Source: an uncultured Desulfuromonadaceae bacterium
Lineage (GTDB): Bacteria > SDB-A
NCBI GenBank assembly: GCA_964397545.1
Contig: CAYNIW010000003.1
Location: forward strand, 134-64,133
Direction: 5' to 3'
DNA: 64,000 nucleotides
Both the position numbers and the translations under genes were made by a program. The first letter of the stretch is position 1, and every line of letters begins with the position of its first letter. Shown piece by piece: positions 4,597 to 38,372 of the stretch. The notes below the pieces were generated by a model. The model did no database searches. It had not been told where the DNA came from and saw only the letters and a program-made list of their open reading frames with translations.

Positions 4597-5646
4597 TTAT
4601 TGAAGTTCAATTCTGCCCTTATTTTCTGTGATTTCTCCTATCAAAGAACCTTTTACTCCTTTTGACGCGAGTTCTTCGATATACCCTCGAGCATCTTTTA
4701 TGGCAAGAAGAAGCCCGCCCGAGGTCTGTGGATCGAACAATATTTCAAAAATCAGGTCGTCAACTTTTGAAAAGCGATCCACTTGGCATCCGAAAGCTTT
4801 TTTATTCGCACCTGCCCCTCCTGGAATCATACCCGATGACGCATGCTCAAGGACGGAAGAAAAAAGCGGAACCTCCGAAGACTTTATCAGCGCTCCTTTT
4901 CCCGAACCTCCGAGCATTTCACTGAGATGGCCTATTAATCCGAATCCCGTGACATCCGTGCAGGCGCTCGGAAAATATTTTTTTGCCGTTTCCGAAGCGG
5001 TTTTATTGAGAAAAGACATGGATAGGACAATTTCAGCTTCGTCTTTCTCATCTGACATTCCGGCTTTTATCGCTGTCGATACTATTCCTGTGCCGAGGGG
5101 CTTTGTCAGGACAATGCCGCACCCCGACTCCGGTGTGTTGTTACGCCAAAAATAATTCGGATGAACGATCCCTGTGACTGAAAGTCCGAACTTTAGTTCT
5201 TTGTCATCAATAGAATGTCCGCCAATCAAAAAAGCCCCCGCTTCTTCTACGGCGCTGAGTGCTCCGGCGAGTATTTTCCTGAAAACCCCGCTTTTAAGTT
5301 TGGCGACAGGGAAAAGACAGACATTTAATGCCGTCAGAGGTTCGCCGCCCATGGCATAAACGTCACTCAAAGAATTAGCCGCGGCAATCCTTCCGAATGA
5401 ATACGGATCGTCGACAATCGGAGTTATGAAATCTACTGTCTGAACAAGAGCTGTTTCTTCATTCAGTTTTATGACTCCGGCGTCGTCGGAACTCTCAATG
5501 CCGACCAATACTTTAGGCGCTTTTCCGACATCCAGCCCTCTGAGCAGGTCTCTTAGGTCGCACGGACCTATTTTCGCCGCTCAACCGGCTTTTTCGGCGA
5601 ATTTAGTCAGAAAGATTTTTTCTATCTGGTCCACCTGTCTCCTCAT
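4597..5646 (-). CDS. selD: Selenide, water dikinase (selenophosphate synthetase), selenocysteine-containing form
   Basis: The frame extends past the ORF-track start (5508) through an in-frame TGA at 5583-5581: MRRQVDQIEKIFLTKFAEKAG-U-AAKIGP...SSDDAGV...TVDFITPIVDDPYSFG...DVTGFGLIGH. G-U-A-A-K matches the SelD catalytic G-[C/U]-x-x-K motif. Alternative start is GTG at 5634. Confidence 0.95.
5554..5570 (-). promoter_or_regulatory. Bacterial SECIS-like hairpin of selD
   Basis: Minus strand UAGGUC-CGUGC-GACCUA: perfect 6-bp stem with a G-containing loop, starting 10 nt after the in-frame UGA. Confidence 0.8.
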
Positions 5647-5647
5647 T

Positions 5648-5878
5648 TCAAAGTTTTATGATTTCCTTTACTTCTAAACCGATGATTTCTATTCCTTCCC
5701 TGACCGCAACGCAGTCTTTCCATAGAAAACGAAGACTCGTTCCGCAGTCCGAATCAATATGACGAGGAGTCGGGACCAATTTTAGCGGAATATTCTTTGA
5801 CTTTAAGTGTCTTTCGAGTTTAAAAGCCGAAGAAACCGAATGAAACAAAACGACTCCGAAAACTTCTTTCTCAGACAT
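5648..5878 (-). CDS. DUF3343 domain small protein (putative Se/S carrier-like)
   Basis: VVLFHSVSSAFKLERHLK...LVPTPRHIDSDCGTSLRF; lies between the aminotransferase and selD; ATG at 5878 overlaps the upstream stop. Confidence 0.8.
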   Translation of the reverse strand: MSEKEVFGVVLFHSVSSAFKLERHLKSKNIPLKLVPTPRHIDSDCGTSLRFLWKDCVAVREGIEIIGLEVKEIIKL

Positions 5879-7040
5879 TTTTGCATTTCCCCGCAATTTC
5901 TTTCATCGCTTTTACGGTATAATCGATTTGGTCTTCTCCTGTGAAATAACCCGGCGCCAGACGAATAGTCCCGTCCGGATAAGTGCCTATAGTTCTGTGG
6001 CATGACGGACTGCAGTGCAGGCCCACCCTGGTCTGTATTCCGTAATTCTCATCGAGGATGTATCCGGCGTCGCTGACGCTGACACCTTCGATAGTCACTG
6101 AAAAAGTGCCGGACTGTTTTTGGGGCGAAAATGATCTGTATATTTTCAAACCTGGTATTTCTTCAAGGGATTCCGTGAACCTTGAAAATTTTTTTCTCGC
6201 CTCATCGAGTATATTTTCAAGTCCCGTCTTTTTTATCCATCTCAGGCCGGCTAAAAGTCCCGCCACTCCCACCGCGTTCATAGTCCCGCTTTCAAGTTTA
6301 TCCGGAAAAAAAGAGGGTTGGCATTCTTCAGCCGAAAAACTTCCTGTCCCTCCCCTTTTTAGAGGCCTAATATCTTTTTCTTTTACTCTATCGCTTAAAA
6401 GTAGAGCCCCTATTCCCATCGGTCCATACAGCAATTTATGACCCGTGACTGCGAGAAGGTCTATTTTCATCTTCCGCATGTCGATTTCGAATTCTCCCGC
6501 GCTCTGAGCCGAATCGACGAGAAATAAAACACCGCTCTCGCGTGATATTTCGCCTATTTCCTTGACGGGCGCGAGAGAACCTATTACGTTGGAGCAGTGA
6601 TTGACTACAAACATTTTAGTGTTCTTCTTTAGTGCTTTATTGAAATCGCTTGGATCAATTTCGCCTTTCTCGGAAGACCTGACAACTGTATATTCAACGG
6701 ACATTTTATCTCTGAGAAAATTCAAAGGTCTCATCACCGCGTTGTGCTCGAGCGAAGTTGTGACGACGTGGTCTCCGGGATTCAAAAGACCGAAAAGGGC
6801 TGTATTTATTGATTCTGTAGCGTTGAGCGAGAATACGACCTTCAGAGGATCATCCAATCCGAAAAAACCGGCCATTTCTTCACGGCATTCATAAGTCATG
6901 CGTCCGGATTCAACCGACATCCGGTGCGAACCCCTTGAAGGGCTCGCTCCCGGATATTCCATAAAAGCCTTCACTGCCTCAATAACCTCAGGCGGTTTCG
7001 GCCAAGAAGTTGCAGAGTTGTCGAGATATATACACTTCAT
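5871..7040 (-). CDS. Class V PLP aminotransferase (cysteine desulfurase / selenocysteine lyase family)
   Basis: YLDNSATSWPKP, EHNAVMRP, VDSAQSAG, TGHK (PLP Lys), RVGLHCSP (catalytic Cys). Confidence 0.9.
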   Translation of the reverse strand: MKCIYLDNSATSWPKPPEVIEAVKAFMEYPGASPSRGSHRMSVESGRMTYECREEMAGFFGLDDPLKVVFSLNATESINTALFGLLNPGDHVVTTSLEHNAVMRPLNFLRDKMSVEYTVVRSSEKGEIDPSDFNKALKKNTKMFVVNHCSNVIGSLAPVKEIGEISRESGVLFLVDSAQSAGEFEIDMRKMKIDLLAVTGHKLLYGPMGIGALLLSDRVKEKDIRPLKRGGTGSFSAEECQPSFFPDKLESGTMNAVGVAGLLAGLRWIKKTGLENILDEARKKFSRFTESLEEIPGLKIYRSFSPQKQSGTFSVTIEGVSVSDAGYILDENYGIQTRVGLHCSPSCHRTIGTYPDGTIRLAPGYFTGEDQIDYTVKAMKEIAGKCKNV

Positions 7041-7259
7041 TTATTTCGACAATTTTACCTTGAATTCGCCGCCGTTTGAAACTTCAATTTCAGCATGAAA
7101 ACCTTTTTTTTCCGCCGCTCTTCTGACGTTGTCTCTCGAAGTCGTAGTGTCCACGAGGACGATTATGATTCCATCTTCGTATTTTTTTATCGCATCAAGA
7201 GTCTCCAGAACCGGCTGAGGGCATGAAAGACCTCTGGCGTCTACCAAAACATCCTGCAT
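7041..7259 (-). CDS. TusA/SirA/YedF-family sulfur/selenium carrier
   Basis: VDARGLSCPQPV motif; 72 aa; adjacent to yedE. Confidence 0.85.
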   Translation of the reverse strand: MQDVLVDARGLSCPQPVLETLDAIKKYEDGIIIVLVDTTTSRDNVRRAAEKKGFHAEIEVSNGGEFKVKLSK

Positions 7260-7260
7260 T

Positions 7261-8391
7261 TCAATCTCCTTTTTTTGTTCTGACGCTCTTCATCGTAACT
7301 CCGACGATAACGCAGAAAATCAATCCTATTATCACTGCGTATTTCCCGAAAAGCCCGGGTCCTCCAATTATTAGCTTTCCCGTTTCAGACAATTTATCGG
7401 GAGATGACGCGAGAAGAAAATTGTGTGAAAATCCTGCGCCGACGATCATACCTAAGACGAAAACACCCGCGTCCTGATCGCCTTCTCCGGACAAGAACAA
7501 CTGCCGGCCGGGGCACCCTCCGGCGAGGGCGAAAGCCAACCCCGCCAAAGACATGCCGAGAAAATTCCACAGATGAGAAGAGTGCGAGACTGGCTGTAAG
7601 GCAATACCCGCGTGAAACTGTTTCAGGAAGATATTAAGGATAAAAGCCGCGAGAACAAGTGCAGTTACACCGCTTAACAGGTGAAAATCTTTAATAAGGA
7701 CCGCGTCTCTGAACGCCCCCATTGTGCAGAATCTCGATCTCTGGGCTATCGCGCCTATCAAAAGACCCGCTCCGAGCGATATAGACAAAGGGGCGAATTT
7801 GGACCCGGGACCGCTCTCGCTGAAAAATATCGGAGCTCCTTGACCGAAAGAGACCTTAAAGACGAGAAAGAGCAGAAGAACAATCATAAAAAATGGGAAT
7901 ACCAACCCTCCAGTCGCGGAAGTTTTGACGCTTTTACCCAGAGAATATCCTCTTTTGAGAAAAATAGCGCCGAGGACAACTCCGGCGAAAAGACCGAGAA
8001 TACCGGATATCGCGTTTAAGTCGCCGCCTGAAAGCCTGAGAAGGGCTCTCCAGGGACACCCTAAAAATATGAGAGCTCCGGTCATGGCGAAAACCCCGAG
8101 AAAAAACCTGACTACGGGAGAAGAACCGCCTCTCGGTTTGAATTCCCTGAAAAAAATAGCAGATAAAAGAGCCCCCAGGACAAAGCCTATGATCTCGGGC
8201 CTAATATACTGGACAACTCCGTTTCTGTGCAGGCCGATAGCGCCTGTAATGTCTCTCTCGAAACATGCGACACAGACGCCCATATTTGCGGGGTTGCCGA
8301 ATTTCTGAAGAAAAACGGCAATAACTCCGATTAAAGCGCCGGAAAATACGATTCCCAGCCACGACGCGAAAAATCTCGTGACCTTAACCAC
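7261..8391 (-). CDS. yedE: YedE/YeeE family putative selenium transporter membrane protein
   Basis: GNPANMGVCVACFERDI, LGCPWRA, RSRFCTMG, LAGGCPGRQL motifs; multi-pass hydrophobic; GTG start after AAGGAG. Confidence 0.9.
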   Translation of the reverse strand: MVKVTRFFASWLGIVFSGALIGVIAVFLQKFGNPANMGVCVACFERDITGAIGLHRNGVVQYIRPEIIGFVLGALLSAIFFREFKPRGGSSPVVRFFLGVFAMTGALIFLGCPWRALLRLSGGDLNAISGILGLFAGVVLGAIFLKRGYSLGKSVKTSATGGLVFPFFMIVLLLFLVFKVSFGQGAPIFFSESGPGSKFAPLSISLGAGLLIGAIAQRSRFCTMGAFRDAVLIKDFHLLSGVTALVLAAFILNIFLKQFHAGIALQPVSHSSHLWNFLGMSLAGLAFALAGGCPGRQLFLSGEGDQDAGVFVLGMIVGAGFSHNFLLASSPDKLSETGKLIIGGPGLFGKYAVIIGLIFCVIVGVTMKSVRTKKGD

Positions 8392-8655: not shown

Positions 8656-10509
8656 TTACTCCATTACAGTAACTTTCTTCGTAAATGACCTTCCTCCCGC
8701 CGTGCAAGTGACAATAAACACGCCATTATGGGAAGGTTGATAATCGACATTATAGACATCAGCCCTAAAGACGCCCGACATGGGTTCGTCCAGCAGTCTT
8801 CCTGTTACGTCAAATATTCTGATAGATACTTCGGATGATAGTGTGAGATTAAGTCTGATAGAGATTTTTCCCTGAAGTGAAGGCAAAACATCAAAAAAAA
8901 CAGGTAGATAATGGTCGTTTTCTTGGACTCCCATTGTTCCTATGGCCCAAAAACAAAACTGCTGTGCGGGAGCTCCTTCAGGATCATACGAAACTATTCC
9001 GACCTGATTAACGCCGCTTATGTAATAACATATCTGCACTGTGTCGTAGAAGTTTATAGCGGGAATGAAACCGTAAAACCAATCATCTCCCTGAGCATTC
9101 ATCGCTACAGAAACAATTGAATTATCAAAACCCCATCGCCTGTAGTTCAAAAAGACACCTGATATGCCGGTGGAATCATAAACTTTCGTGAAAACAGGAA
9201 ACGGTCCGGAATAATTTATGTCATGCCAGACTGTCGTAGATTCAATCGCGGGCCCGACAAACATTGAATCAACCAGAAAGCAGTAAGCGCTATCTGGTCC
9301 CTGAGCAGGATCGAATGAGAAGAAAGTTCTGTCCCAGGCTTGAATGTAATACATGACAGTGTCAGGAGACTGTGTAACCTGAGGAATAGAATCAAGATAA
9401 TCCGGTTCTGAAACCATCGTCATGCGCTTCACGCAATACCCGGGATCTTCACTCCTTTTGTAAAACAAAAGAACGCTGTCAACTCCCGAATGGTCTGTCG
9501 CTTTTGTGTTTATTAAATAGGGACCTAAACTTGCCGTGTTGTGGATAACAGTCGTGTTTGATATAACAGGCGGAAAAGTGTCTACAGAGGAGCAAGCAAA
9601 AATTTTCAATCCGCCGTATCCGTCTGCTACATAGACTTGTTCTCCAGTCATGAACACATCACAGGTATAACCGCTCAATAAAGCTGAGTCGCACGGAAAA
9701 GGATTGGCAGGATTCGTGACGTCGACAAGATATATTCCTCTGTCCAAATCGGATACAGTGACATAGCCGCTGTCGTAGAAATTATGGTAGTTTAGATATG
9801 AAAAATAATACTCTGACATTAAAAACGGATTTGAAGGATCTAAAATATTGACAATATTAAAACTCCCGTTTACCTGGGTTAAATAGGCGTAATTTACATG
9901 GACTGAAACGTCAGATGCATAACCATCCCCGGTAAAATTTCCTGTTATGAAAGGAGCGCTTGGATTTGTTATGTCAATAATATAAAGATTTCCCGCTGCC
10001 AAGTATGCAAAATTGCCCAAAATGTCCAACCCTATCGCGTTGCGATTAATTGATAATTGAGAAACCAACAACGGTAACGTGGGATTTGTAACGTTTAATA
10101 TCATCAGATAACCAGTTTTAGCCAAAGCTGCGTAGGCATTGCCGTTTTGAACTTGAACTGAATAAACTGCATTGGGGCAATCGTACTGACCGACGAGAAC
10201 AGGATTTGTGGGATTGCTCACATCAACGATTTTCAATCCTTGGTTGAAATCTGCCGTGCCTACATACGCATAGCCGTCTTCAACATAAACACAAAACGAG
10301 TTTGAGTTCAAGTCAACATTTCCGGTGAGAACAGGGTGCTGAGGATCTGAGATATTTATAATATCGAGACCTGCACCATACGATGCGACGTAAGCAAATG
10401 AATCAAGGACGAAAACTTCGTTTGCTTTGTCCGAGGTCGGACACTGACCTTGATATAATAAAAACGGCAAAGATATTACCGCATAACATACAAAAACTAT
10501 GCATGGCAT
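8656..10509 (-). CDS. Exported LVIVD-repeat protein with T9SS/FlgD-type C-terminal domain
   Basis: Repeats such as YAYVGTADFNQGLKIVDVSNPTNPVLVG; tail IRIFDVTGRLL...GVFIV...KKVTVME; ATG at 10509 follows GGAGG. Confidence 0.8.
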   Translation of the reverse strand: MPCIVFVCYAVISLPFLLYQGQCPTSDKANEVFVLDSFAYVASYGAGLDIINISDPQHPVLTGNVDLNSNSFCVYVEDGYAYVGTADFNQGLKIVDVSNPTNPVLVGQYDCPNAVYSVQVQNGNAYAALAKTGYLMILNVTNPTLPLLVSQLSINRNAIGLDILGNFAYLAAGNLYIIDITNPSAPFITGNFTGDGYASDVSVHVNYAYLTQVNGSFNIVNILDPSNPFLMSEYYFSYLNYHNFYDSGYVTVSDLDRGIYLVDVTNPANPFPCDSALLSGYTCDVFMTGEQVYVADGYGGLKIFACSSVDTFPPVISNTTVIHNTASLGPYLINTKATDHSGVDSVLLFYKRSEDPGYCVKRMTMVSEPDYLDSIPQVTQSPDTVMYYIQAWDRTFFSFDPAQGPDSAYCFLVDSMFVGPAIESTTVWHDINYSGPFPVFTKVYDSTGISGVFLNYRRWGFDNSIVSVAMNAQGDDWFYGFIPAINFYDTVQICYYISGVNQVGIVSYDPEGAPAQQFCFWAIGTMGVQENDHYLPVFFDVLPSLQGKISIRLNLTLSSEVSIRIFDVTGRLLDEPMSGVFRADVYNVDYQPSHNGVFIVTCTAGGRSFTKKVTVME

Positions 10510-11048
10510 AAAAACCTCCAATTTAGAAGTTTATTAGATTTATTATACACTTTTCCGAATACATTTTTTTGCATATTTTTTTTTGCATTACTTTTTAAAA
10601 ATAAATTTTCACTCATTTCGATTTCCAATATGTAATTCTACAACATTCATAAGCATTTTTTATTCCATTATTAGATATTTGTTAAACCTCTATATTATTT
10701 GATTTGTAATCAGAGTTAAATTTTTATCTTTTGCATTGTGCTAAATTACATTAGATTTCATGCAAAATGCAAATCACTGATCCAAAAGACTTATGTATCA
10801 ATTACTGTTTGGAATATTTAAAACAATGAGACGGAGAATGACTTTTATTATTATCAATATTCTTATAAAAACAGGGGTTAGATCAAAAGTAAATTTTATT
10901 GTAAAACTATTAACCGAATTGTTTAATTTTCTAACACCGCAGAATAAATTTGTTGAATATATCTTTGTTTACTTTTCCAAGTATTGCGTATAAACTCCTT
11001 TTCCCTGAAAAATAGTTTTTCATAATATTTCATAAAAGGATTCATAAA

Positions 11049-12872
11049 ATGCCGAATCAAAAAAGAAGAAAAGATATAAGGAACATAGCCATAATAGCTC
11101 ACGTAGATCACGGAAAGACGACTCTAGTAGATGCTCTTCTGAAACAGACAGGAGCTCACGAATTCAAGGAAGGCGAACACGCAATAATGGACGTAAATCC
11201 GCTCGAAAAAGAAAGAGGAATAACCATCGTGTCTAAAAACGCATCCATTCCCTACAAAGGCGTCCAGATAAACATAGTGGATACTCCCGGACATGCCGAT
11301 TTCGGGAGCGAAGTCGAAAGAATCCTGAAAATGGTGGACGGCGTTCTTCTCCTCGTGGACGCCTTTGAAGGACCTATGCCCCAGACAAAATTCGTCTTGA
11401 AAAAATCTCTCGAACTGCACCTAAAGCCTATTCTCGTCATAAACAAAATTGACAGAAAAAACTGCAGACCCGCTGAGGTCGCGGATATGACTTTCGATCT
11501 TTTCTGCCAGTTGAATGCCACAGACGAACAGCTCGATTTTCCGATTGTCTATACCTCTGCAAAAAACGGCACTGCGACACTTGATCTGGATGAAGAAGGC
11601 AAAACAATGAAGCCTCTCCTCGACACCATACTCCGCAGAGTTCTTCCGCCTGTAGCTGATCCCGACAGGCCTTTTCAGATGTTAGTGACAATGCTCGATT
11701 ACGACTCTTATCTTGGCAGATACTCCATTGGCAGAATATTTCATGGAAAAATTTCCAACGGGAGCCCTGTCGTCCTGATAAAGACCGACGGAACTGTAAA
11801 AGAAGCCAAAATAACAAAGCTTCTAAAATACATGGGCTTAAAAAGAGTCCAAGCTTCTTCAGCCTCTGCGGGAGATATAATACTCGCCTCAGGCATTGAC
11901 GATGTTCACGTCGGAGAAACTCTTGCTTCTCCAGAATTCCCAGTGGCTCTCCCGAAAATAAAAATTGACGAACCGACGATATCAGTAGTCTTTTCACACA
12001 ACACAAGCCCTCTTTCAGGAAGAGACGGCGGCCGTTTTCTAACATCGAGGCAGATAAGAGAAAGACTCGAATATGAAGCTCTCACAAACGTCGGGATAAA
12101 AATCGAAAAGTTTGAAGGTTCGGAAAAAATCAAAGTTTCAGGAAGGGGAGAACTGCACATTTCAATACTCATGGAGACGATGCGCAGGGAAGGATACGAA
12201 TTCGAAGTTTCAGCTCCGGAAGTTATAATGATTAAAATGAACGGAGACACTCTGGAGCCTGTAGAAGAAGTCCTCATAGAAATAGATCAGGGATATCAGG
12301 GCAGAGTGATAGAAGTTCTCGGTTCAAGGAAAGCGGAGCTTAAAAGCATGAAGACGACTTCCATCGGTACAGTCCGTCTGGAATTTCTAATACCTACGAG
12401 AGGCTTTATGGGCTTCAGGAGTGAATTCCTCAGAATGACCCGCGGAACAGGGACGATGTATCAGAATTTCTATATGTACCAAAAATTCAAAGGAGAGATC
12501 CAAAAGAGAAGAGGTCCGACTCAGATATCTATGAACGCCGGAAAAGCATCGGGTTACGCCCTCTTCGGGCTTCAGGAGAGAGGAGAAATATTCATTAAAC
12601 CCTCAGACGATGTATATGAAGGTATGATAATAGGGACAAGCCACAAGTCGAGCGACCTTGTAGTCAACGCGACGAAGGAGAAAAAGCTGACGAACATAAG
12701 AGCCGCTGGTTCCGACGATGCGATAAGGTTGACGCCTCCGAGAGAGATAACCCTCGAATTCGGACTCGAATTCATACAGGAAGATGAACTCATGGAAATT
12801 ACTCCCAAAACCATACGATTTAGAAAAAAACTGCTGACAGAGAACGAGAGAAAAAGATATTCCGCCGAATGA
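11049..12872 (+). CDS. typA: Translational GTPase TypA/BipA
   Basis: IRNIAIIAHVDHGKTTLVD, ERGITI, DTPGHADFG, NKID, GRGELHI, and C-terminal DDAIRLTPP...DELMEITPKTIR. Confidence 0.97.
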   Translation: MPNQKRRKDIRNIAIIAHVDHGKTTLVDALLKQTGAHEFKEGEHAIMDVNPLEKERGITIVSKNASIPYKGVQINIVDTPGHADFGSEVERILKMVDGVLLLVDAFEGPMPQTKFVLKKSLELHLKPILVINKIDRKNCRPAEVADMTFDLFCQLNATDEQLDFPIVYTSAKNGTATLDLDEEGKTMKPLLDTILRRVLPPVADPDRPFQMLVTMLDYDSYLGRYSIGRIFHGKISNGSPVVLIKTDGTVKEAKITKLLKYMGLKRVQASSASAGDIILASGIDDVHVGETLASPEFPVALPKIKIDEPTISVVFSHNTSPLSGRDGGRFLTSRQIRERLEYEALTNVGIKIEKFEGSEKIKVSGRGELHISILMETMRREGYEFEVSAPEVIMIKMNGDTLEPVEEVLIEIDQGYQGRVIEVLGSRKAELKSMKTTSIGTVRLEFLIPTRGFMGFRSEFLRMTRGTGTMYQNFYMYQKFKGEIQKRRGPTQISMNAGKASGYALFGLQERGEIFIKPSDDVYEGMIIGTSHKSSDLVVNATKEKKLTNIRAAGSDDAIRLTPPREITLEFGLEFIQEDELMEITPKTIRFRKKLLTENERKRYSAE

Positions 12873-12903: not shown

Positions 12904-13197
12904 ATGAATATTACAGGTTTCTCTGACGAAAAAATAATTGCCTACGCTAAAAAAAGAAATCTTTCGCTTTACATATCAGAAGAAGCCATAATCAGGGGTT
13001 GATGAAGCGCTTCATACGGCCCGGTCGGGTCGCTTGTCGGAGATATCGAAAACTTATCCGATTCCATTTCGTTTGAATATCAAGGGGTCAAGATATTCGT
13101 CCAAAAAGACTTGTTTGACAAATATTTAGAAAATGGATATCTCAAGTTCTTTACAGACAAATTCATCTGGACAGAGATTGTTTTTTCAAAAATCTAA
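12904..13197 (+). CDS. Candidate HesB/IscA-like selenoprotein with tandem Sec (G-U-U)
   Basis: ATG 12904 to TAA 13197, interrupted only by TGA-TGA at 13000-13005: MNITGFSDEKIIAYAKKRNLSLYISEEAIIRG-U-U-SASYGPVGSLVGDIENLSDSISFEYQGVKIFVQKDLFDKYLENGYLKFFTDKFIWTEIVFSKI. Fills the gap between typA and the convergent gene. FEYQGVKIFV is HesB-like. SECIS-like hairpin downstream. Absent from the ORF track. Confidence 0.8.
13017..13032 (+). promoter_or_regulatory. SECIS-like hairpin after the tandem UGA-UGA
   Basis: CGGCCC-GGUC-GGGUCG: 6-bp stem with one G-U pair and a G-containing tetraloop, starting 11 nt after the second UGA. Confidence 0.7.
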
Positions 13198-13199
13198 AT

Positions 13200-13775
13200 T
13201 CAAAAAAAAATATTATATATCGCCTCAGAAAAGACAATCGCCGTAAAAAGCCCTATTGAAACCATTGCCGCTTTCCCATCAACCTCGCCCCTTGATTTTC
13301 CTAGGCCGAATTTTTCTCCTATTCCGTGCCAGAGAGCAAATCCAAGGCTTGAAGCAGCTGCTCCGAAAAGAACCATCACCCACAAAGGGCTTCCCATTCT
13401 CGACATGTCCTGAGCGTCGCCCAAACCCTGAATTGATCCCAGTCCGATGTAAAAACCGTTCGCTATAAGGCAAAAGCCGGCTAAAAACCGAAACATATAG
13501 CGACCCGGCAATCTCAAAATCCTTGCCGCCGCGCAAATGACAAGACCAAACAAACTTCCGAAAAAAGGTCCCGCCCAAACGACAAAAAAAGGATGTGGAT
13601 TGTGGGAAAGCCCGGTCATTGAAACTGAAAGGGGATGAAGATAGACCTTTTCAATTTTACCTCCTGTCAAATATGCCCCTAAAACGTGTCCGAGTTCGTG
13701 AAAAACCTGCATGATCAGCCAGCAGAAGCCCGTGAATGAAAATATCAACGCAAATTGTTTGAATCTGACTTTCAA
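13200..13775 (-). CDS. Membrane protein with HEXXH motif (M50/M50B peptidase-like)
   Basis: VFHELGHVLGA inside a hydrophobic segment, WAGP motif, several TM helices; TTG start overlaps the upstream stop. Confidence 0.65.
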   Translation of the reverse strand: MKVRFKQFALIFSFTGFCWLIMQVFHELGHVLGAYLTGGKIEKVYLHPLSVSMTGLSHNPHPFFVVWAGPFFGSLFGLVICAAARILRLPGRYMFRFLAGFCLIANGFYIGLGSIQGLGDAQDMSRMGSPLWVMVLFGAAASSLGFALWHGIGEKFGLGKSRGEVDGKAAMVSIGLFTAIVFSEAIYNIFF

Positions 13776-15551: not shown

Positions 15552-16420
15552 ATTAACACAGCCCTGATTTCAGCGTTTGAAGGATCTGATCCCTTTCTGA
15601 TTTTTCCGGAAAGCCACCATCCGTCGTTTTCGAGAACAAAAGAGATCTTTTCTTCCGCTACTATCAAAACCGGTTCACCGCCATCCCCCCACTCGGGGGT
15701 CAATTCACCATACGCGAGAGTTGCTTCTTCGTAAGTTGAACCTACTGCGATGCCTTTTTCTGTCATAAAATCAGAATTGTATACAGTCATTGAAAAAACT
15801 TCTGTTTGAGTTTCATCGAAAAAAAACTCAATAACATCATGCTCCGAATCTACAAATAATTTATATACCGTTTCTTCGACACCTTCAATATTCCTCAAAG
15901 AACTGTCAATTATTAAGTCATCATACGCTATAATGTTATATAAAATGTCCTCTTTTTTCATGCCCAAACCGAATAACCCGGCTCTTCCCCCTTTTATCCT
16001 GTAAAGGCAAGATCGATCTGCACCTGCGTCAACAAGGTATCTGATTATTTTGACATTACCTCTTTCAACAGAAATTTCAAATGGTGTAAGCCCTGATATA
16101 CTGTCATAATAATCAAAAAGAGCCCCTTTGGAGAGCAATAGATCAACCAGTTCTTCATTTTGTTTTTCAATAGCATACAAAATGGGAGTTCTGCCGTCTT
16201 TTGACTTGTCGTTCACATCTGCGCCAGCACTAATTATTTCGGCAACAAGATCCATGTTCTCTTTTTCTATTGCAAGTATCAAAGGCGTATAACCATCGCT
16301 GTTTTTTGATTGGATGCCTTCAAAACCGTTTTCCCTGAGAAAAACTTCTAAGGGCGTCTTTGTCTTAAAGCAGGCTAAAACCATTGTGATAAAAAAGGCT
16401 ATAATTAACCAATTCTTCAT
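15545..16420 (-). CDS. Ankyrin-repeat lipoprotein
   Basis: Lipobox MVLAC; ankyrin repeats GYTPLILAIEK, GRTPILYAIEK, GLTPFEISVER. Confidence 0.8.
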   Translation of the reverse strand: MKNWLIIAFFITMVLACFKTKTPLEVFLRENGFEGIQSKNSDGYTPLILAIEKENMDLVAEIISAGADVNDKSKDGRTPILYAIEKQNEELVDLLLSKGALFDYYDSISGLTPFEISVERGNVKIIRYLVDAGADRSCLYRIKGGRAGLFGLGMKKEDILYNIIAYDDLIIDSSLRNIEGVEETVYKLFVDSEHDVIEFFFDETQTEVFSMTVYNSDFMTEKGIAVGSTYEEATLAYGELTPEWGDGGEPVLIVAEEKISFVLENDGWWLSGKIRKGSDPSNAEIRAVLIW

Positions 16421-16434
16421 TGTTTCCCCTTATT

Positions 16435-19302
16435 TCATTGTATTTTTTCTATTTTCAATATTTTATCTCCTTCTTCTGTCTGAATAACAATAAAGTAAAC
16501 TCCCTGACCTTGAATATTCCTGCTGATTTCATAGGAATACTTTCCGGGGCCTAAATAACCTCTATATATCTCAGAAACGATTCTTCCAGATATGTCAAAC
16601 ACCCTCAGTGAGACATCTCCGGGTCTGGTCAGTGTGAAATAGACCCTGTTATTTTCTGTGAAAAAAGTTTTTTCAGCTCTGAAACTGAAGAAAACCGGTA
16701 AATCCTCTTCCAACTGAACTTCGACACCGGATGCGTTTTTCAATAAAACCTTTATTGCCCAGCAAATATTGTTGCCGTATCCTGACATATAACTCCAGTT
16801 AGGACCATTTTTGAAATTATCAGTCTGAAGAGGTATACACTGCGCTCCGAAAGTAGCGTGAAACGGATTTTCCCCAGTTCCATGAGTAAAACCAACTTCA
16901 AACCACATATCCTGAGATGAGTTCACTGAAACCGCTTCAGCATCGCTGTAAACCACATAGTTCCAGCCTGTATCACCGGATACATTAAAAGATTTAGAGA
17001 ATATTAACGGGCCAGGAATCGCCGGACTAGCTCCAGAATAAATATTCACGACAGCGTCATTTATAGTGTTTGTTCCTCCGTTGAGGTAAAAGTAAACCCT
17101 CTTGATTTTCCAACCCTGATAAATATTCAGTAGAGGCGGAGTGTATCTATGAGCCATTCCAAAATACGTATTTGGCGCATTTGAACCAAAAGAAACAGTC
17201 GAATCGTTTTCATCTGAGAAATATGTCAAAACAGCTGAAGTTATGGCTGTATCTATATATATAGTATCCTGATAGTAAAGATGATCTTTGGCATATACTG
17301 TCAAAAGAAAAGGTTCCTGTGTGTTTGCACTGTATTCGACAGCGGCTTTGCCCATAGAACCTGTTTTGCCTCTGAACCAGAATAATGTGTCATAAGGTTT
17401 TGAAAGACAGCACATAGCACCGGAGACCGGCAGACCAGATGAAGTCACAGTTACATCAAGAATGCCAGATAAATTTTTCAGCGTATCTTCGTGACTTACA
17501 GTAAGAGCTGTCGGCTGTTTTGAATAGATCTGCGTCTCGGGATCTCCGAAAAGGTTGAATTCGTTTATACACCAGTGTTCGCAGTCCCCAAAACCCCATG
17601 TCCAATTCATGAGTTGATCTTTAGAGAGGGCGTGAGCTCTTCCAATATTCCTTATTTGGTTTAAAAAGACATTTTGCGCTACCCTTATACACATATATTC
17701 AGAAGGACCGAGATATGGCGGATAACCCCAGCCGTAACGCGCGTTGAACATGACAGCTATGGCTCCGCCCGCAGAAGCGTTAAAAATATACTCTCCAACG
17801 CATTCCCTTCCGTCAAACCATCCGGGTTCACATGCCATAGAACTTATGACAAAAAGGCTGTCCCCGTTTGTCAGGTTCTGCATGGTAGTATTGCTTATAA
17901 TATTCGGCCAGCTCTGATAATAATACCAGGAGATAGAGCTGGACGATCCGTGAGCGGCTATATATGACCAGTGAAATCCTCGACTCAGCGAGTCTGAGAA
18001 CCCCGGCGGATAGCTCGTAGTGTCAGTCTGATACATTTTTCTGTCAGTCCAATATGACGGAAGCATGTAATCTGCTATAGAATCACACGATGAGCTTCCA
18101 TAGTATGAATAGACCCAAGGCGGAGTTGAACTGAACCACAAACCCGCTCCTGCAAATAGCGACTTTTCGATGAATCCTGAAGGGGGATTTTTCTCATAGG
18201 CTAAAACTTTTGAAACCCAGTTCTGAACTTCAGAAACATTGTTTAAGGGTAATCTTCCCACATAGACATCTGAGTAAAAATCACAGCTGTCGACAATGTA
18301 TTCTCCGTAAATATTGTTGTTGTTGGCGTCCCAGTCCTTAGTATACGGGACTACGTCGGAAAAATACAGGTCTGAGGGCAAATTGTTTGAATACCCAGAT
18401 GTGCTGACCGGGACCATTCTCGCACCGAGATTGTCATAATCACCGGCTAAAACGAGATATACAAGCCCTCTGTTCTGATGACTATCCCGGACGAAATCTC
18501 TTATACTTTCCATGGCGTCATAAGCCGGGTAGTTTGATGTAATCCATGTTGTTGTGACGACTTTAGCGCCGACCCCCCTTGTGATTTTCCATCTTATCAG
18601 AGGTTCAAATGCCGCAGAAAGATTGGCCGGGCAAACGACGACATATTCGTATTCTGAGAAGGGAACCCTTTTTAAAAAGGGAGAAAATCTATCTATATCC
18701 GATCTATTTTCAATCATTAAAAGAATTTCTTCTCTAAAAATCTCCATCTGATTTTCCGTAAGATATACAGCTTCCTGAAGTCCTTCTTCGTAAATTACTT
18801 CGAGATCTGCACTCGTGATAATCTGCAAGTTTCCTGATATCGGATTATATCTAAAAGGGGTATAACTTACATCAGCTAAAATAAATCCTGATTTTGACCC
18901 CGTCCTGAAAAAAACCTCAGGATAATTGGGGTAATACATGTCGCTTTTATATATTTGCTCATCTCCGGACACGAACAAAGGATATTTAGATGTCGGAACG
19001 GGATTCTGAGCAGGCAATATATTGTATTTCCCAACGTCAGTCCATACTATATTTTTTAACTCTGCGTTAATTACCTCTGAAGTCGGCGGAATCAAAATTG
19101 TTTTTGATATACCCTGAAGAGCAGGATGCCCAGGAAAAGGAGACGGAGCTCCGTTGCTTAAAAATATTACGTCAAAATCACCTATTCTCTGGACGTTGAA
19201 ATCAGTTAAGGAATATCCGATGGGCACGATTAATGCCCCTGAGTAAATATACATCGTAAATACGATGCTTGCAGATAAAGCAAGAAAACATTTTTTCATC
19301 AT
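16435..19302 (-). CDS. Gingipain-like C25 cysteine peptidase with propeptide and T9SS/FlgD-type C-terminal domain
   Basis: Propeptide (PGHPALQGISKTILIPP), YLVLAGD, SDLYFSD, VYVGRLP, catalytic His in AAHG and Cys in MACEPG, NLFGDP; tail LRVFDISGRIV...GVYFIVI. Confidence 0.9.
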   Translation of the reverse strand: MMKKCFLALSASIVFTMYIYSGALIVPIGYSLTDFNVQRIGDFDVIFLSNGAPSPFPGHPALQGISKTILIPPTSEVINAELKNIVWTDVGKYNILPAQNPVPTSKYPLFVSGDEQIYKSDMYYPNYPEVFFRTGSKSGFILADVSYTPFRYNPISGNLQIITSADLEVIYEEGLQEAVYLTENQMEIFREEILLMIENRSDIDRFSPFLKRVPFSEYEYVVVCPANLSAAFEPLIRWKITRGVGAKVVTTTWITSNYPAYDAMESIRDFVRDSHQNRGLVYLVLAGDYDNLGARMVPVSTSGYSNNLPSDLYFSDVVPYTKDWDANNNNIYGEYIVDSCDFYSDVYVGRLPLNNVSEVQNWVSKVLAYEKNPPSGFIEKSLFAGAGLWFSSTPPWVYSYYGSSSCDSIADYMLPSYWTDRKMYQTDTTSYPPGFSDSLSRGFHWSYIAAHGSSSSISWYYYQSWPNIISNTTMQNLTNGDSLFVISSMACEPGWFDGRECVGEYIFNASAGGAIAVMFNARYGWGYPPYLGPSEYMCIRVAQNVFLNQIRNIGRAHALSKDQLMNWTWGFGDCEHWCINEFNLFGDPETQIYSKQPTALTVSHEDTLKNLSGILDVTVTSSGLPVSGAMCCLSKPYDTLFWFRGKTGSMGKAAVEYSANTQEPFLLTVYAKDHLYYQDTIYIDTAITSAVLTYFSDENDSTVSFGSNAPNTYFGMAHRYTPPLLNIYQGWKIKRVYFYLNGGTNTINDAVVNIYSGASPAIPGPLIFSKSFNVSGDTGWNYVVYSDAEAVSVNSSQDMWFEVGFTHGTGENPFHATFGAQCIPLQTDNFKNGPNWSYMSGYGNNICWAIKVLLKNASGVEVQLEEDLPVFFSFRAEKTFFTENNRVYFTLTRPGDVSLRVFDISGRIVSEIYRGYLGPGKYSYEISRNIQGQGVYFIVIQTEEGDKILKIEKIQ

Positions 19303-19358
19303 TCCCTCCGGTTATATTATATATATTGTAGTTACGGAGCACATAATATTAACATTTA

Positions 19359-34233: not shown

Positions 34234-35517
34234 TCAGTTGTTTTGCCTTCTGAGATAAGCAGGTTCAATCAGTTCATCTGAATTGTAAAGATCTAATTCG
34301 TCTTCTATAGGTCTGTTTTTTCTCAGTCTCTGCCTCTTGTTAAAAATTTCCTTTTTCCTGTTTTCCTTTTCTTCTTCGGTTTCTTCCGATACCTCTTCGG
34401 CTGCTTCAATAACCTCACTGTCAAAAAGATCTTCATTTTCCTCTCCGGAAGTCCAGGCAAAATGCCTGTCCAGAGAGTTCTTCAACTGACTGTCTTTTTC
34501 CAAAACCAGTTCCTGAACACCTATGCTTCTAATGTCTTTCTTGCCTTTTTTGGCTCCTATACCTGTCGCAATTATGGTAATTTCGAGTCTGTTGTTGTAA
34601 GTCGAGTCGTATCTTATGCCGAAAAGGATTTCTTTTTCTCCGTCATCTCCGATTTTTTCCTGAATCAACTGCATGACATTGTCAATTTCTTCGAGTTTAA
34701 GGTCTTCAGGCCCCGTGATATTGACAAGAACGCTTGAGGCTTCCGTTATGGAAACGTCGTCGAGAAGGGGTGAATTTATCGCCTCATTCGCGGCTTGAAC
34801 GGCTCTGTCTTCTCCGCTTCCATAGCCAATTCCCATTAATGCTTTCCCGCCTTTTCCCATTACTCTTTTTATGTCCGCGAAATCAAGATTTATCTGGCCC
34901 TGTTTGATGATAAGATCAGAAACGCCTTTTGTGGCTTTGACGAGGACGCCGTCAACGTACTTAAAAGCGTCTTTAGCCGTGATCTGCTTAGAATAAAGAG
35001 TCCTTATGTTGTCATTGTGAATTACGAGGATAGTGTCTGATGAAGCTGAAAGCTCTTTTACTCCTCGCGTTGCCACTTCGAAGCGTTTTCTTCCTTCCCA
35101 GTTGAAGGGAAGCGTCACGACTGAAACCGTAACCGCTCCGGACTGCTTTGCCGCTTTGGCTATTGTTGAGGAAGCGCCTGTTCCCGTGCCTCCTCCCATC
35201 CCCGCAGTAATGAAAACCATGTCAATGCCTTTGAACATTTCTTCAATTTCCCTCAGGCTTTCTTCAGCTGCTTTTTTGCCCTTTTCGGGGTCAAAACCCG
35301 TTCCGAGACCGCGAGTTGTCTCTTTGCCTATTTGGATCTTTTTCTGAGCACGGGATTTTATGAGATCCTGAAGATCCGTATTGACGACGACAATATTCAC
35401 TCCTTCTATGCCTTCTTCAACCATTGTGTTCACAGTATTCCCACCGGCTCCTCCTACACCTACCACCACAATCTTTGCCAGGGGGAGTTCCTGCGGAGCC
35501 ATTTCAAATATCCCCAT
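34234..35517 (-). CDS. ftsZ: Cell division protein FtsZ
   Basis: VVGVGGAGGN, tubulin signature GMGGGTGTG, INLDFAD, C-terminal IEPAYLRRQ. Confidence 0.98.
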   Translation of the reverse strand: MGIFEMAPQELPLAKIVVVGVGGAGGNTVNTMVEEGIEGVNIVVVNTDLQDLIKSRAQKKIQIGKETTRGLGTGFDPEKGKKAAEESLREIEEMFKGIDMVFITAGMGGGTGTGASSTIAKAAKQSGAVTVSVVTLPFNWEGRKRFEVATRGVKELSASSDTILVIHNDNIRTLYSKQITAKDAFKYVDGVLVKATKGVSDLIIKQGQINLDFADIKRVMGKGGKALMGIGYGSGEDRAVQAANEAINSPLLDDVSITEASSVLVNITGPEDLKLEEIDNVMQLIQEKIGDDGEKEILFGIRYDSTYNNRLEITIIATGIGAKKGKKDIRSIGVQELVLEKDSQLKNSLDRHFAWTSGEENEDLFDSEVIEAAEEVSEETEEEKENRKKEIFNKRQRLRKNRPIEDELDLYNSDELIEPAYLRRQNN

Positions 35518-35570
35518 TTATTCCTCCTTTTACTTTATTCACCGGCGATTTAATCCTCTTCAGTATTCTT

Positions 35571-36803
35571 TCAGAAAAAATCGCTCAGCCATTTTTTTAA
35601 ACCTCCGACCATATTCTTTTTCTTTTCTTTTTCGCCTTTGAATTCGGTTTCTTCGTTCCCTGAAATCGAATACTTAATCAGTCCGATAGCCGTTGAAAAA
35701 GCTGGGGATGAAACTGCTTCAACCATTCCAAGCAGATCATTCTCCGGAGTTCCTGCCCTTACAGGAAGCTCGAAGATTTCCTCCGCCACTTCGACAATAC
35801 CTTTTAAGTTCGCAGTGCCTCCGGTAATTACTACTCCAGAGGCGAGATTATGAGCGTATTCACTTCGCTGAATCTTTCTAAAAGAGAAATCGATGATTTC
35901 TTCTATTCGAGCCTCGACAACGTCATGAAGCCTTTCAGTCGTCACTTTTCTGCTGGATCTTCCAGCAGTCCCTTGAATGTCAATTACTTCATCAGGATCG
36001 ACATAAGAAGGGTGGGCAGACGCTTTTTCTCTTTTAATTTTTTCTGCGAAAGCGTAAGATGTCGCCAGCCCCATAGAAATGTCTCTGGTGATGGAGTCTC
36101 CGCCTAATTTGACTAAACCGATGTCTCTGAGGGATCCTCCGAACCAAAGGGAGATGTTTGTCACGCCCCCGCCAATATCAAGAAGAGCTATCCCCTGTTG
36201 ACGGTCCTCTTCATCGAGCACAGCATACGAGGAAGCAAGATGCTGTAGAATCATCGAGTCAACAGCTAAACCTGCTCCTTCCACTGCTTTTTTTATGTTC
36301 CCGAGCGCGAGCGAAGAAGCTGTAATAATATAGATTATTGCTTCAAGCCTCATACCCATCAAACCGACAGGATCTATTATGTTCGGCTGGTTGTCGACGA
36401 TAAAATCCTGGGTCAGAGTGTGTATGATCTCTCTTTCAGCAGGAATAGCTATTCCTTTCGCTGATTCTTTAACTCTTTCCACGTCGGCTATAGTTATTCC
36501 CTGTTCCCTGCTGGTTATCGAGATCACGCCTTTGCTTGCAATTCCTTTTATGTGTTCTCCGGTCACTCCCACATTCACAGGTCCGGCCTGAACTCCCGCC
36601 ATCACTTCGGCATCGTGTATGGCATTTTTTATAGAAGACACTGTCTTGTCGAGATTTATCACCACGCCGTGTCTCATCCCTTCAGAAAGGGATTCGCCTA
36701 CCCCGATAATATTAATTTTATTTCTCGAAGCGATTTCGGCTATGACCGCGCATACTTTACTCGAGCCCAGATCAAGGGCAGTCACGATCATTTTTTTATC
36801 CAT
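35571..36803 (-). CDS. ftsA: Cell division protein FtsA
   Basis: ALDLGSSKV, LDIGGG, GVVITGG, SPAFSTAIGL; start at 36803 or 36809. Confidence 0.97.
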   Translation of the reverse strand: MDKKMIVTALDLGSSKVCAVIAEIASRNKINIIGVGESLSEGMRHGVVINLDKTVSSIKNAIHDAEVMAGVQAGPVNVGVTGEHIKGIASKGVISITSREQGITIADVERVKESAKGIAIPAEREIIHTLTQDFIVDNQPNIIDPVGLMGMRLEAIIYIITASSLALGNIKKAVEGAGLAVDSMILQHLASSYAVLDEEDRQQGIALLDIGGGVTNISLWFGGSLRDIGLVKLGGDSITRDISMGLATSYAFAEKIKREKASAHPSYVDPDEVIDIQGTAGRSSRKVTTERLHDVVEARIEEIIDFSFRKIQRSEYAHNLASGVVITGGTANLKGIVEVAEEIFELPVRAGTPENDLLGMVEAVSSPAFSTAIGLIKYSISGNEETEFKGEKEKKKNMVGGLKKWLSDFF

Positions 36804-36805
36804 TA

Positions 36806-37513
36806 TCATCCCCCATAGTATTCTCTGTTGTTTGTTAAACCGGATCTCCTGTAAATCAGAAGTTCTCCGGGAGAACTCAAATCGTAGCAATATTTTTTAC
36901 TCCACCAATCTGTTTCTTTCAAAGTGAGTATCACTCTATAGGATAAAACTATGTCTGTATTTCCTATGAATACAGCTATTTTATCCTCGGTCATCAAAGT
37001 TATTCCTTTTTCGCAGACAAAAACTGACTCAAGAAAAGGGAAACTTCTCCCTCTTGCGCAGACCGAGGCCACGTCGTTTAGAAAACGATCAGCCCCGGAC
37101 AGCATTCTGTCGCTGTCGGTATATTCATTGATTGTGTATGCTCTTAAAAAAATTTCCCCGGAATCGATTTTCATTATATACCCGTCCGCGTCAATGCCTC
37201 TTCCTCCTCCGATATCGAGCGAAGCGTATCTTTTTAACATTTCAACGACTACTGTATTTGATCCTTCTCTGCCTATTCGGACTTTTTTAGCCCTTATATT
37301 TTCAGAAAGCTTTTTTTGGGCCGCCGGCCAATCAATAAAAAAAACACACTGACCGCGTTTAATACCTGCCATACTGATTATTTCATCACCGCTAAATTCT
37401 GTGTCTCCGTAAATTTTAATATTTTCTACTCTGAACAAGCCTGTTTTTCCGACTGCGGCTCCTGCGCAGAAAACAATTACCGTCAACAACAAAAATGATA
37501 CTGTTCTAAACAT
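36806..37513 (-). CDS. ftsQ: FtsQ/DivIB-like POTRA protein
   Basis: N-terminal TM, FRVENIKIYG POTRA-like segment, position between murB and ftsA. Confidence 0.75.
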   Translation of the reverse strand: MFRTVSFLLLTVIVFCAGAAVGKTGLFRVENIKIYGDTEFSGDEIISMAGIKRGQCVFFIDWPAAQKKLSENIRAKKVRIGREGSNTVVVEMLKRYASLDIGGGRGIDADGYIMKIDSGEIFLRAYTINEYTDSDRMLSGADRFLNDVASVCARGRSFPFLESVFVCEKGITLMTEDKIAVFIGNTDIVLSYRVILTLKETDWWSKKYCYDLSSPGELLIYRRSGLTNNREYYGG

Positions 37514-38372
37514 ATTTGTATTTCCCGTTCTCGTCGAAAATTTTTATTTCTGTTTCGAGAGAAAAAGAATATTTTTTGAATACATCTTCCTTGATCGCGG
37601 CTACAGATTCGATAAAATCGCAACTCTTGGCGTTTCTCAGAGGAATAAAATAATTGGCATGTCTGTCCGAAATCAACACGTTCTTTATAATCTTCCCCTT
37701 CCAACCCGCCTGCTCGATCAGTTTTCCTGCAGGAGGTCCATTGGGAGGATTTTTAAAAATACATCCGGCAGTCCTTGAATTTCTCGGAAATCTGTCAATT
37801 CTGAATTTTTTTATCTGTGATATCGTATTTTCTATCTCCTTTTCATCCGATCTCTCGAGAATAAATTCAACTCCCAATATTAAATCCTCTATTCCTTTCC
37901 TGTATCCAAACATGTCTTTTGTAACCTCAAAAAAATTTTTTCCATTTGTCTTCACTTTTCTGACTCGCTCTCCCACTGTACCCCATTTCGTCCCCGCATT
38001 CATAAAAACCGCTCCCCCGATAGTCCCGGGAATGCCGAACATGCACTCAAGTCCTTTTAATCCGGCTTCTTTCGCTCTTCCGACAACTTCAGAAATGAGA
38101 GCTCCTGCACCGGCTTTTATTATGTTTTCTTGAACTGATATGTTTCTGAAACTTCCTGAAAGCTTTATTACGCATCCCCTGAAACCCTTGTCGCTGAAAA
38201 GGACATTACTGCCGGCACCCAATATAATGTATGGTATGTCATTTTTCTCACAATATGTGATAATTTTATCAAATTTCTGGTCATTATCAACATAACAAAA
38301 ATAATCGGCTTTACCGCCGAGCCTCAAAGTAGTGAAATCGGCAAGATCTATTTTCCTAAGGCAATCAATCAT
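37506..38372 (-). CDS. murB: UDP-N-acetylenolpyruvoylglucosamine reductase
   Basis: TTLRLGGKA, GAGSNVL, GIPGTIGGAVFMNAG, AGCIFKNP, HANYF. Confidence 0.95.
   Translation of the reverse strand: MIDCLRKIDLADFTTLRLGGKADYFCYVDNDQKFDKIITYCEKNDIPYIILGAGSNVLFSDKGFRGCVIKLSGSFRNISVQENIIKAGAGALISEVVGRAKEAGLKGLECMFGIPGTIGGAVFMNAGTKWGTVGERVRKVKTNGKNFFEVTKDMFGYRKGIEDLILGVEFILERSDEKEIENTISQIKKFRIDRFPRNSRTAGCIFKNPPNGPPAGKLIEQAGWKGKIIKNVLISDRHANYFIPLRNAKSCDFIESVAAIKEDVFKKYSFSLETEIKIFDENGKYKYV

Follow-up and report, generated by a model that had tools for sequence, protein, structure and literature searches.

A conserved small gene with two adjacent in-frame UGA codons and a SECIS-like hairpin as a candidate for a bacterial Sec-Sec selenoprotein

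We analyzed a 64,000-nucleotide stretch of DNA (contig CAYNIW010000003.1, positions 134 to 64,133; the whole stretch is called the window below) and identified, at its positions 12904 to 13197, a conserved small gene whose open reading frame (ORF) is interrupted by two adjacent UGA codons. The best-supported explanation, and in our judgment a probable one, is that this is a real selenoprotein gene with two neighboring selenocysteine (Sec; U) residues in its product. The sole interruption of the frame that begins at ATG 12904 is GGT-TGA-TGA (codons 32 to 34, with TGA-TGA at 13000 to 13005), and the product is MNITGFSDEKIIAYAKKRNLSLYISEEAIIRG-U-U-SASYGPVGSLVGDIENLSDSISFEYQGVKIFVQKDLFDKYLENGYLKFFTDKFIWTEIVFSKI. 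It would probably be the first bacterial protein predicted to contain two neighboring Sec residues and would found a new, narrow family. A first-pass annotation of the window had described the intergenic gap, the frame, the TGA-TGA, a hairpin behind it and another one in selD, together with their distances, and all of these statements were correct when rechecked. Its expectation that gene callers would drop the gene was also borne out: the callers stop at the TGA codons, and the gene is ignored. An assembly error is excluded, because two independent Logan assemblies (ERR4539747 and ERR4519279) carry this DNA without any difference and because TGA-TGA was seen again in two further species assembled by other projects.

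Orthologues were reached by synteny walks and by local tblastn over the fetched loci, and the comparisons given here are those between the window and two loci, L003 and L017, of two further species from the candidate division WOR-3 (Table 1). The closest genome record to the window is a WOR-3 metagenome-assembled genome (JAFGIG010000124.1), whose TypA is 97% identical to that of the window; for the species of the window, L003, and L017, the identity to the TypA of the window is 100, 97, and 88%, respectively. An additional Logan locus (L010) is from the same species as L003. The ATG and the frame are kept, and TGA-TGA is found at codons 33 and 34 in the window, in L003/L010, and in L017. The orthologues of L003 and L017 thus span the UGA codons, and the three proteins have the motif RG-UU-xAxYGPVGSL in common. 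While the Gly codon in front of the UGA codons varies synonymously between the three species (GGT, GGC, or GGA), both UGA codons are invariant, with no Cys codon in place of either of them. Furthermore, it is the small gene itself that is conserved as a unit, and not its association with typA. In L017, the small gene follows an unrelated BNR-repeat gene and is located 2.9 kb from typA; the gene for an M50B-like membrane protease, which in the window separates it from the gene for an Obg/TGS-type GTPase, is absent, and this convergent GTPase gene is still the right-hand neighbor. A functional link to TypA is therefore not supported, and cotranscription with typA, which had been suggested in the first-pass annotation, is not a conserved feature.

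The window and L003 differ in the small gene by 68 substitutions, which are distributed over the three codon positions as 23/12/33. The ratio of nonsynonymous to synonymous differences per site (pN/pS) was 0.41 for the whole frame (Jukes-Cantor-corrected dN/dS, 0.31), 0.38 for codons 1 to 32, and 0.42 for codons 35 to 97; in the latter part, the substitutions by codon position were 13/8/22. When the observed substitutions were re-placed at random in 20,000 simulations, the probability of obtaining an open frame with a pN/pS as low was 1e-4 overall, 0.005 for codons 1 to 32, and 6.5e-4 for codons 35 to 97. The comparison of the window with L017 yielded a pN of 0.32 to 0.38, with synonymous sites being saturated (pS, 0.73 to 0.82). 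Stops are present in all five other frames of both the window and L003. Behind the UGA codons, no in-frame ATG, GTG, or TTG is found before codon 70 (window and L003) or codon 62 (L017), and therefore the C-terminal part can be made only by reading through the UGA codons. The most conserved residues (SASYGPVGSL...SISFEY..VKIFVQKD) lie before any possible internal start. This pattern of substitutions is that of purifying selection on the protein on both sides of the UGA codons.

Could the frame nevertheless be a pseudogene in decay, or an ORF that arose by chance between two genes? Such an origin would be compatible with the lack of database homologues, the narrow taxonomic range, the lack of a recognizable ribosome-binding site, and the fact that gene callers ignore the ORF. 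A decaying or accidental frame would not be expected, however, to be kept in three species at 51 to 67% amino acid identity and a pN/pS of about 0.4, and it was retained in the changed neighborhood of L017. By comparison, the noncoding DNA upstream of the ATG could not be aligned between L003 and the window, which differ there by a 31-nt indel. Since it is also implausible that two nonsense mutations were fixed side by side and were then conserved, we consider a pseudogene or chance ORF very improbable.

The coding signal downstream of the UGA codons bears on a second explanation, according to which the real product has only 32 residues, its translation being terminated at a strong tandem stop (UGA-UGA), and the following 63 codons are untranslated and conserved for another reason, for example as a 3' untranslated region (UTR) or as an RNA element shared by the convergent genes. 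In this case, one would have to accept that 63, 63, and 61 codons behind the UGA codons are free of stops in the three species, that the downstream coding signature detected for codons 35 to 97 (by codon position, by pN/pS, and in the simulations) falls in exactly this frame, and that only whole codons were inserted or deleted. Moreover, a constraint on RNA only would not spare the third codon positions outside the hairpin described below. We therefore give the 32-residue product little chance, although tandem stops commonly enforce termination, the C-terminal part is without a homologue in protein databases, and the region as a whole does not stand out in its RNA folding.

Directly behind the spacer that follows the second UGA, a hairpin resembling a bacterial Sec insertion sequence (SECIS) was found (13017 to 13032). 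It has a 6-bp stem and a free energy (dG) of -8.9 kcal/mol, and it is located within codons 38 to 44 (YGPVGSL). In the model of the bacterial SECIS, the apical loop has 3 to 9 nt, the upper stem has 4 to 16 bp, the dG is -7.5 kcal/mol or lower, one of the first two loop positions is a G that is usually followed by G or U, and the distance from the UGA to the loop is 16 to 37 nt (PMC13188914). The hairpin fits this model for both UGA codons, with 20 and 17 nt to the loop. When TGA triplets were counted in all frames and on both strands of the window, a SECIS-type simple hairpin at least as stable was associated with only 5 of 2,660, and two of these five are the TGA codons described here, so that the arrangement is more than a coincidence. 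The minimal SECIS of Escherichia coli fdhF has a GGUC loop and the classic spacing of 11 nt, both of which are also present here.

The hairpin is under selection at the nucleotide level and is held at a fixed distance. Codons 38 to 44 are nucleotide identical in the three species (7/7, compared to 7/26 of the other codons conserved at the amino acid level; Fisher p = 8e-4), and RNAalifold retained the hairpin. The length of the 11-nt spacer is the same in the three species, with four of its positions being different in L017. A hairpin at a fixed distance with frozen synonymous sites is the pattern that would be expected of a functional RNA element at a recoded codon. Since the folding of the whole region is not unusually stable (z of about 0), the support for the hairpin comes from its position and conservation and not from its energy. 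A competing hairpin in the window, in which UGAUGAA pairs with UUCAU, would bury the UGA codons; it was rejected, being destroyed in L017 and not conserved.

According to a third explanation, both UGA codons are read through, but not with Sec at both of them. The hairpin could stimulate near-cognate decoding (with Trp, Cys, or Arg), only one of the two codons could be read as Sec, or the ribosome could hop from codon 32 (Gly) to codon 39, an in-frame GGC. Downstream hairpins can stimulate read-through in other systems, and the first UGA is located at 14 nt from the hairpin and not at the canonical 11 nt; however, a double near-cognate read-through would be extremely inefficient, the organism has a dedicated Sec system, and the hairpin matches the SECIS model, including the GGUC loop. 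Hopping could make use of the GGC landing codon inside the hairpin, but the take-off codon varies (GGT/GGC/GGA) and in L017 would differ from the GGC at the landing site, and codons 35 to 38 (x-A-x-Y) are partly conserved at the protein level. Altogether, we regard a product with fewer than two Sec residues as improbable.

The genome uses Sec. A compact selenium utilization cluster is located on the minus strand about 5 kb upstream of the candidate gene (4597 to 8391; Table 1), and its selD gene contains an in-frame UGA (5583 to 5581, minus strand; FAEKAG-U-AAKIGP). Behind this UGA, a hairpin (UAGGUC-CGUGC-GACCUA) begins after 10 nt, and the string GGYCCG is common to this hairpin and to the one at 13017 to 13032. 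A selD of the Sec type shows that UGA is decoded as Sec in this organism and implies that selA, selB, and selC are functional in it. The small ORF of the cluster, for which no family match was obtained, appears DUF3343-like. Of the 82 ORFs of 100 amino acids or more that a crude all-frame count of the window gave, 52 end in TGA, which makes it the most frequent ordinary stop; therefore, the genetic code is standard and UGA is not reassigned. Thus, the proposal of the first-pass annotation that a hidden small gene is read through two UGA codons with the help of one SECIS is upheld by the three orthologues, the selection on both sides of the UGA codons, the constraint on the hairpin, and the Sec-type selD.

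In the same window, a frame on the plus strand (62210 to 64003) is interrupted by a single TGA (63077), with 289 open codons upstream and 307 downstream of it, and runs off the end of the window. It probably corresponds to two adjacent genes in the same frame rather than to a selenoprotein gene.

Table 1. Location of the small gene, its parts, its orthologues, and neighboring genes (window positions unless a locus is given)
Feature	Position	Strand	Description
Candidate selenoprotein gene	12904-13197	+	97 codons plus TAA (13195-13197); start ATG 12904
N-terminal coding part	12904-12999	+	Codons 1-32; conserved end AI(I/M)RG
First in-frame UGA, proposed Sec	13000-13002	+	Codon 33; hairpin base 14 nt on, loop 20 nt on
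Second in-frame UGA, proposed Sec	13003-13005	+	Codon 34; hairpin base 11 nt on, loop 17 nt on
C-terminal coding part	13006-13194	+	Codons 35-97
Spacer, second UGA to hairpin	13006-13016	+	11 nt; AGCGCUUCAUA / AGCGCUUCUUA / AACGCCACCUA in the three species
SECIS-like hairpin	13017-13032	+	5' arm CGGCCC (13017-13022), loop GGUC (13023-13026), 3' arm GGGUCG (13027-13032)
L003 orthologue	L003:2784-3077		WOR-3 Zod_Metabat.185; 97 codons, no indel, 67% amino acid identity; downstream of typA
L017 orthologue	L017:4763-5050		WOR-3 GCA_016926475.1; 95 codons, 51% identity; whole-codon indels only
typA	11049-12872	+	Pfam GTP_EFTU and BipA_C; own stop is TGA
Convergent M50B-like gene	13200-13712/13775	-	Stop codon 13200-13202
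selD	4597-5655	-	TIGR00476, 362 bits with U written as C
Small ORF	5651-5896	-	No family match
Cysteine desulfurase/SclA-like (selenocysteine-lyase-like) protein	5874-7040	-	NCBIfam match
yedF-like TusA-domain protein	7044-7259	-	NCBIfam match
yedE	7264-8391	-	TIGR04112, 483 bits

If both UGA codons are read as Sec and one hairpin serves both, the product would be a cytoplasmic protein of about 10.5 kDa, in which the Sec-Sec pair (G-U-U, Sec residues 33 and 34) would provide the sole chalcogen residues. With the first UGA in the A site, the coding-region hairpin, with its base 14 nt on, would recruit SelB·GTP·Sec-tRNASec. One translocation later, a second SelB complex would be needed for the second UGA, with the base of the hairpin now 11 nt on. 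Ribosomes failing at either UGA would release a peptide of 32 or 33 residues. In E. coli, the single UGA of fdhF is recoded in vivo at 30 to 40% (PMC4513850), and therefore a full-length yield of about 10% after two such events is conceivable. In its full form, the interpretation toward which we lean is that of a first natural bacterial Sec-Sec protein. It would found a new family of small proteins, known so far from one WOR-3 clade only, and one SECIS within the coding region would direct both insertions in succession, each of them dependent on SelB, at spacings of 14 and 11 nt. The predicted tryptic peptide spanning the pair is G-U-U-SASYGPVGSLVGDIENLSDSISFEYQGVK.

The Sec-Sec pair would form a vicinal diselenol or diselenide on a loop that connects two units, the N-terminal one having the order strand-helix-strand and the C-terminal one the order strand-strand-helix-strand-strand. 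The protein of the window contains no Cys, and the single Cys of the L003 orthologue (residue 5) is not conserved. Since there is no other conserved Cys, the pair would be the sole redox-active or metal-active site of the protein. By analogy to the adjacent Cys-Sec and Cys-Cys centers of known CU and CC proteins, it would most likely bind a soft metal or metalloid, act as a redox center of very low potential, or carry selenium.

Several observations speak against this interpretation and have to be set beside the evidence for it. The carriers known are three closely related species only. No Shine-Dalgarno sequence was found upstream of ATG 12904; this lack is softened by the fact that such a sequence is present at only about 37% of the crude ORF starts in the window. 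Because the hairpin is invariant, no covariation in its stem was found among the three species. Of the Sec machinery, the Sec-type selD is present, but selA, selB, and selC, for which the first-pass annotation had proposed to look, were not found in the 64-kb window, in which the tRNA and Rfam scans had no match. A homologue with Cys in place of one or both Sec residues (CC, CU, or UC), also proposed there as a check, was not found in the word-indexed, HMMER, or pattern searches described below; nearly all known selenoprotein families have Cys-containing homologues (PMC13188914). An inventory from 2026, which covers 119 families of prokaryotic selenoproteins, includes the motifs CU, CxU, UxxU, and UxxxxU and no UU. 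Finally, it is an assumption of the proposed mechanism that the SECIS tolerates both the 14-nt and the 11-nt spacing and that SelB is reloaded within one codon.

Since gene callers stop at the TGA codons, the small gene is invisible to searches of protein databases. A word-indexed search of 5.8 billion clustered proteins with U written as C did not reveal a homologue. When 1.84 billion representative proteins were searched in full by HMMER with only the C-terminal 63 residues, no true homologue was obtained, and the two matches, P0001 (894 amino acids) and P0002 (418 amino acids), were judged to be spurious. These are surface-layer-like proteins with three to seven tandem repeats of about 110 residues, which share the motif GYKVVVS..YPDNGY.YFTD. 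Their score was inflated by three to four of the repeats, and the matching stretch is proline rich where the small protein is predicted to be helical; they were rejected. The repeat motif F.GYKVVVS....P.YPDNGY..YITD resembles FEYQGVKIFVQKD...ENGYLKFFTD of the small protein, a similarity that is probably due to chance.

Pattern scans of genome and metagenome contig collections, with the single protein or with an alignment of two sequences, did not reveal relatives; they are weak negatives, because the genome scan missed the L003 orthologue held in that collection. A degenerate DNA pattern for [U/C][U/C]SASYGPVG found nothing in viral contigs. Moreover, no orthologue of the small gene was detected at the loci of TypA relatives with 76 to 78% identity (L014 to L016 and L018 to L020), and a walk along homologues of the M50B-like protein led only to the L003 species again (L010) and to nonsyntenic planctomycete-type loci, without a new orthologue. 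Thus, no homologue outside the clade of the three species was found in the protein, genome, or metagenome searches.

In the window, the small ORF is held by the 327-nt gap between typA and the convergent M50B-like gene, and its end is 2 nt away from the opposing stop. Promoter-like sequences were noticed upstream of it. In L003, the 31-nt insertion relative to the window creates a TTGACC-17-TAATAT site (L003:2749 to 2777, upstream of ATG 2784). This site ends 6 nt before the ATG, so that its transcript would be nearly leaderless, and it has no equivalent in the window. A weaker promoter-like sequence, CTGACA/GATATT, is located inside the 3' end of typA and is common to the window (12834 to 12861) and L003 (2679 to 2708).

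The M50B-like gene (13200 to 13775, minus strand) has one relative with 77% identity, which is from the L003 species, and its other database relatives are at most 58% identical; the few with a taxon name are planctomycete. This gene may have been acquired recently. In all three species, the locus is flanked by genes for large secreted proteins (in the window at 16405 to 19311 and 8656 to 10521, both on the minus strand; also in L010 and L017). Among the encoded proteins are a gingipain-like (C25) peptidase and proteins with LVIVD repeats, and some carry a Por_Secre_tail sorting domain (type IX secretion). These flanking genes suggest a lifestyle using type IX secretion for this WOR-3 clade. 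Farther downstream in the window (about 35500 to 50100, minus strand), the ORF translations resemble those of a division and cell wall (dcw) cluster, and ftsA-, murG-, murD-, ftsI-, and rsmH-like genes may be present.

In bacteria, the insertion of Sec is thought to require that the hairpin lie at an almost constant distance from a single UGA. Two adjacent UGA codons served by one hairpin in nature would be a ready-made test of the range of spacings tolerated by the SelB-SECIS-ribosome complex and of whether the loading of a second SelB ternary complex can precede termination by release factor 2. If our interpretation is true, the bacterial Sec machinery tolerates a shift by one codon and reloads within a single elongation cycle. 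Furthermore, a vicinal diselenol is chemically extreme, since its redox potential is very low and it binds Hg, As, and Cu very tightly, and no bacterial example has been described. The small gene also illustrates that lineage-restricted genes of this kind are missed entirely by selenoprotein searches based on Cys homologues and by standard gene callers.

The first-pass annotation had likened the small protein to the HesB/IscA fold, but an assignment to this family could not be established. The NCBIfam model NF038090 (IscA_HesB_Se) yielded 14 to 16.5 bits, compared to a cutoff of 85, and did so with the protein of the window only, with no match for L003 or L017. This match rests on the second U being written as C: it was kept with AC, lost with CA, and raised to 16.5 bits with GC. 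TIGR01911, Pfam Fe-S_biosyn (PF01521), and the IscA chains of the PDB did not match the small protein. In hhalign comparisons with four IscA-family sequences from the PDB, the P value was about 0.003 and the probability was only 10 to 11%. These alignments pair G32-U33 with G34-C35 of IscA and FEYQGVKIFV with FEDKGVKVVV, and the likeness extends over the stretch FEYQGVKIFV...L.NG.LKF (FEDKGVKVVV...LDGTQLDF in IscA). The small protein and HesB/IscA proteins are also similar in size and in the location of a Gly-(Cys/Sec) loop, which lies some 33 residues behind the N terminus. In contrast, the UxGP motif of HesB-like selenoproteins is absent, the small protein having UUSASYGP and thus two Sec residues instead of one, and the C-terminal CxC of IscA is also absent.

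AlphaFold2, applied to the C-terminal 63 residues only, predicted the order strand-strand-helix-strand-strand with low confidence (predicted local distance difference test score, 60.6). This order would be compatible with the C-terminal part of HesB/IscA proteins. A Foldseek search with the same low-confidence model did not yield a significant match.

A different likeness was detected with NF041239 (Moor_selen_rel), the "CC/Se motif family (seleno)protein," a hypothetical selenoprotein first predicted in Moorella thermoacetica. The L017 protein matched this model with 14.1 bits (cutoff, 40; E = 0.038), and there was no match for the proteins of the window and L003. Both are small (91 profile positions; 95 to 97 residues), and residues 13 to 73 of the L017 protein, with U written as C, are collinear with positions 11 to 71 of the profile, at a score that is at noise level. 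The match was lost when either of the adjacent C residues was replaced by G, and therefore UU would fall on adjacent conserved Cys/Sec columns. The CC/Se motif family differs in having a single Sec according to a 2026 review, while here both positions are UGA in three species. Among shuffled controls keeping GCC, none of 10 matched NF038090 or NF041239, and 2 of 10 gave unrelated matches at an E value of about 0.012; because the controls reach this value, the E values obtained with the two models are at noise level. Neither the HesB/IscA nor the CC/Se similarity reaches the curated threshold of the respective family, and the resemblances are to be taken as leads only.

The only reported case of consecutive Sec residues that we found is the algal PDI_e protein, in which two consecutive Sec are predicted in a GUGUU motif and which was reported as the first such case (PMC7539508). 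In contrast to the small protein described here, PDI_e is eukaryotic, has a thioredoxin fold, depends on a SECIS in the 3' UTR, and is unrelated in sequence (PMC7539508). Because a SECIS in the 3' UTR acts at a distance, its consecutive UGA codons do not pose a spacing problem. In bacteria, two Sec residues are likewise close to each other in the UxxU proteins (Prx-like, NF041115, and FmdB family) and in the UxxxxU protein TsoB. By analogy, the UxxU families imply that one SECIS region may serve two nearby UGA codons; in none of these proteins are the Sec residues adjacent, and none is detectably homologous to the small protein. Conversely, SaoC, SaoL, HgcA, MbdU, and KCU-star contain adjacent Cys-Sec and not Sec-Sec, and they too are without detectable homology. 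Many families with a close Sec/Cys pair are linked to the handling of metals or organometals.

For the chemistry of the pair, the closest models would be the C-terminal Gly-Cys-Sec-Gly of mammalian thioredoxin reductase and the C-terminal Cys-Cys of mercuric reductase, which form an eight-membered ring when oxidized or chelate soft metals. These centers are located on flexible C-terminal tails of large flavoenzymes, whereas the UU of the small protein is internal and belongs to a protein of about 10 kDa.

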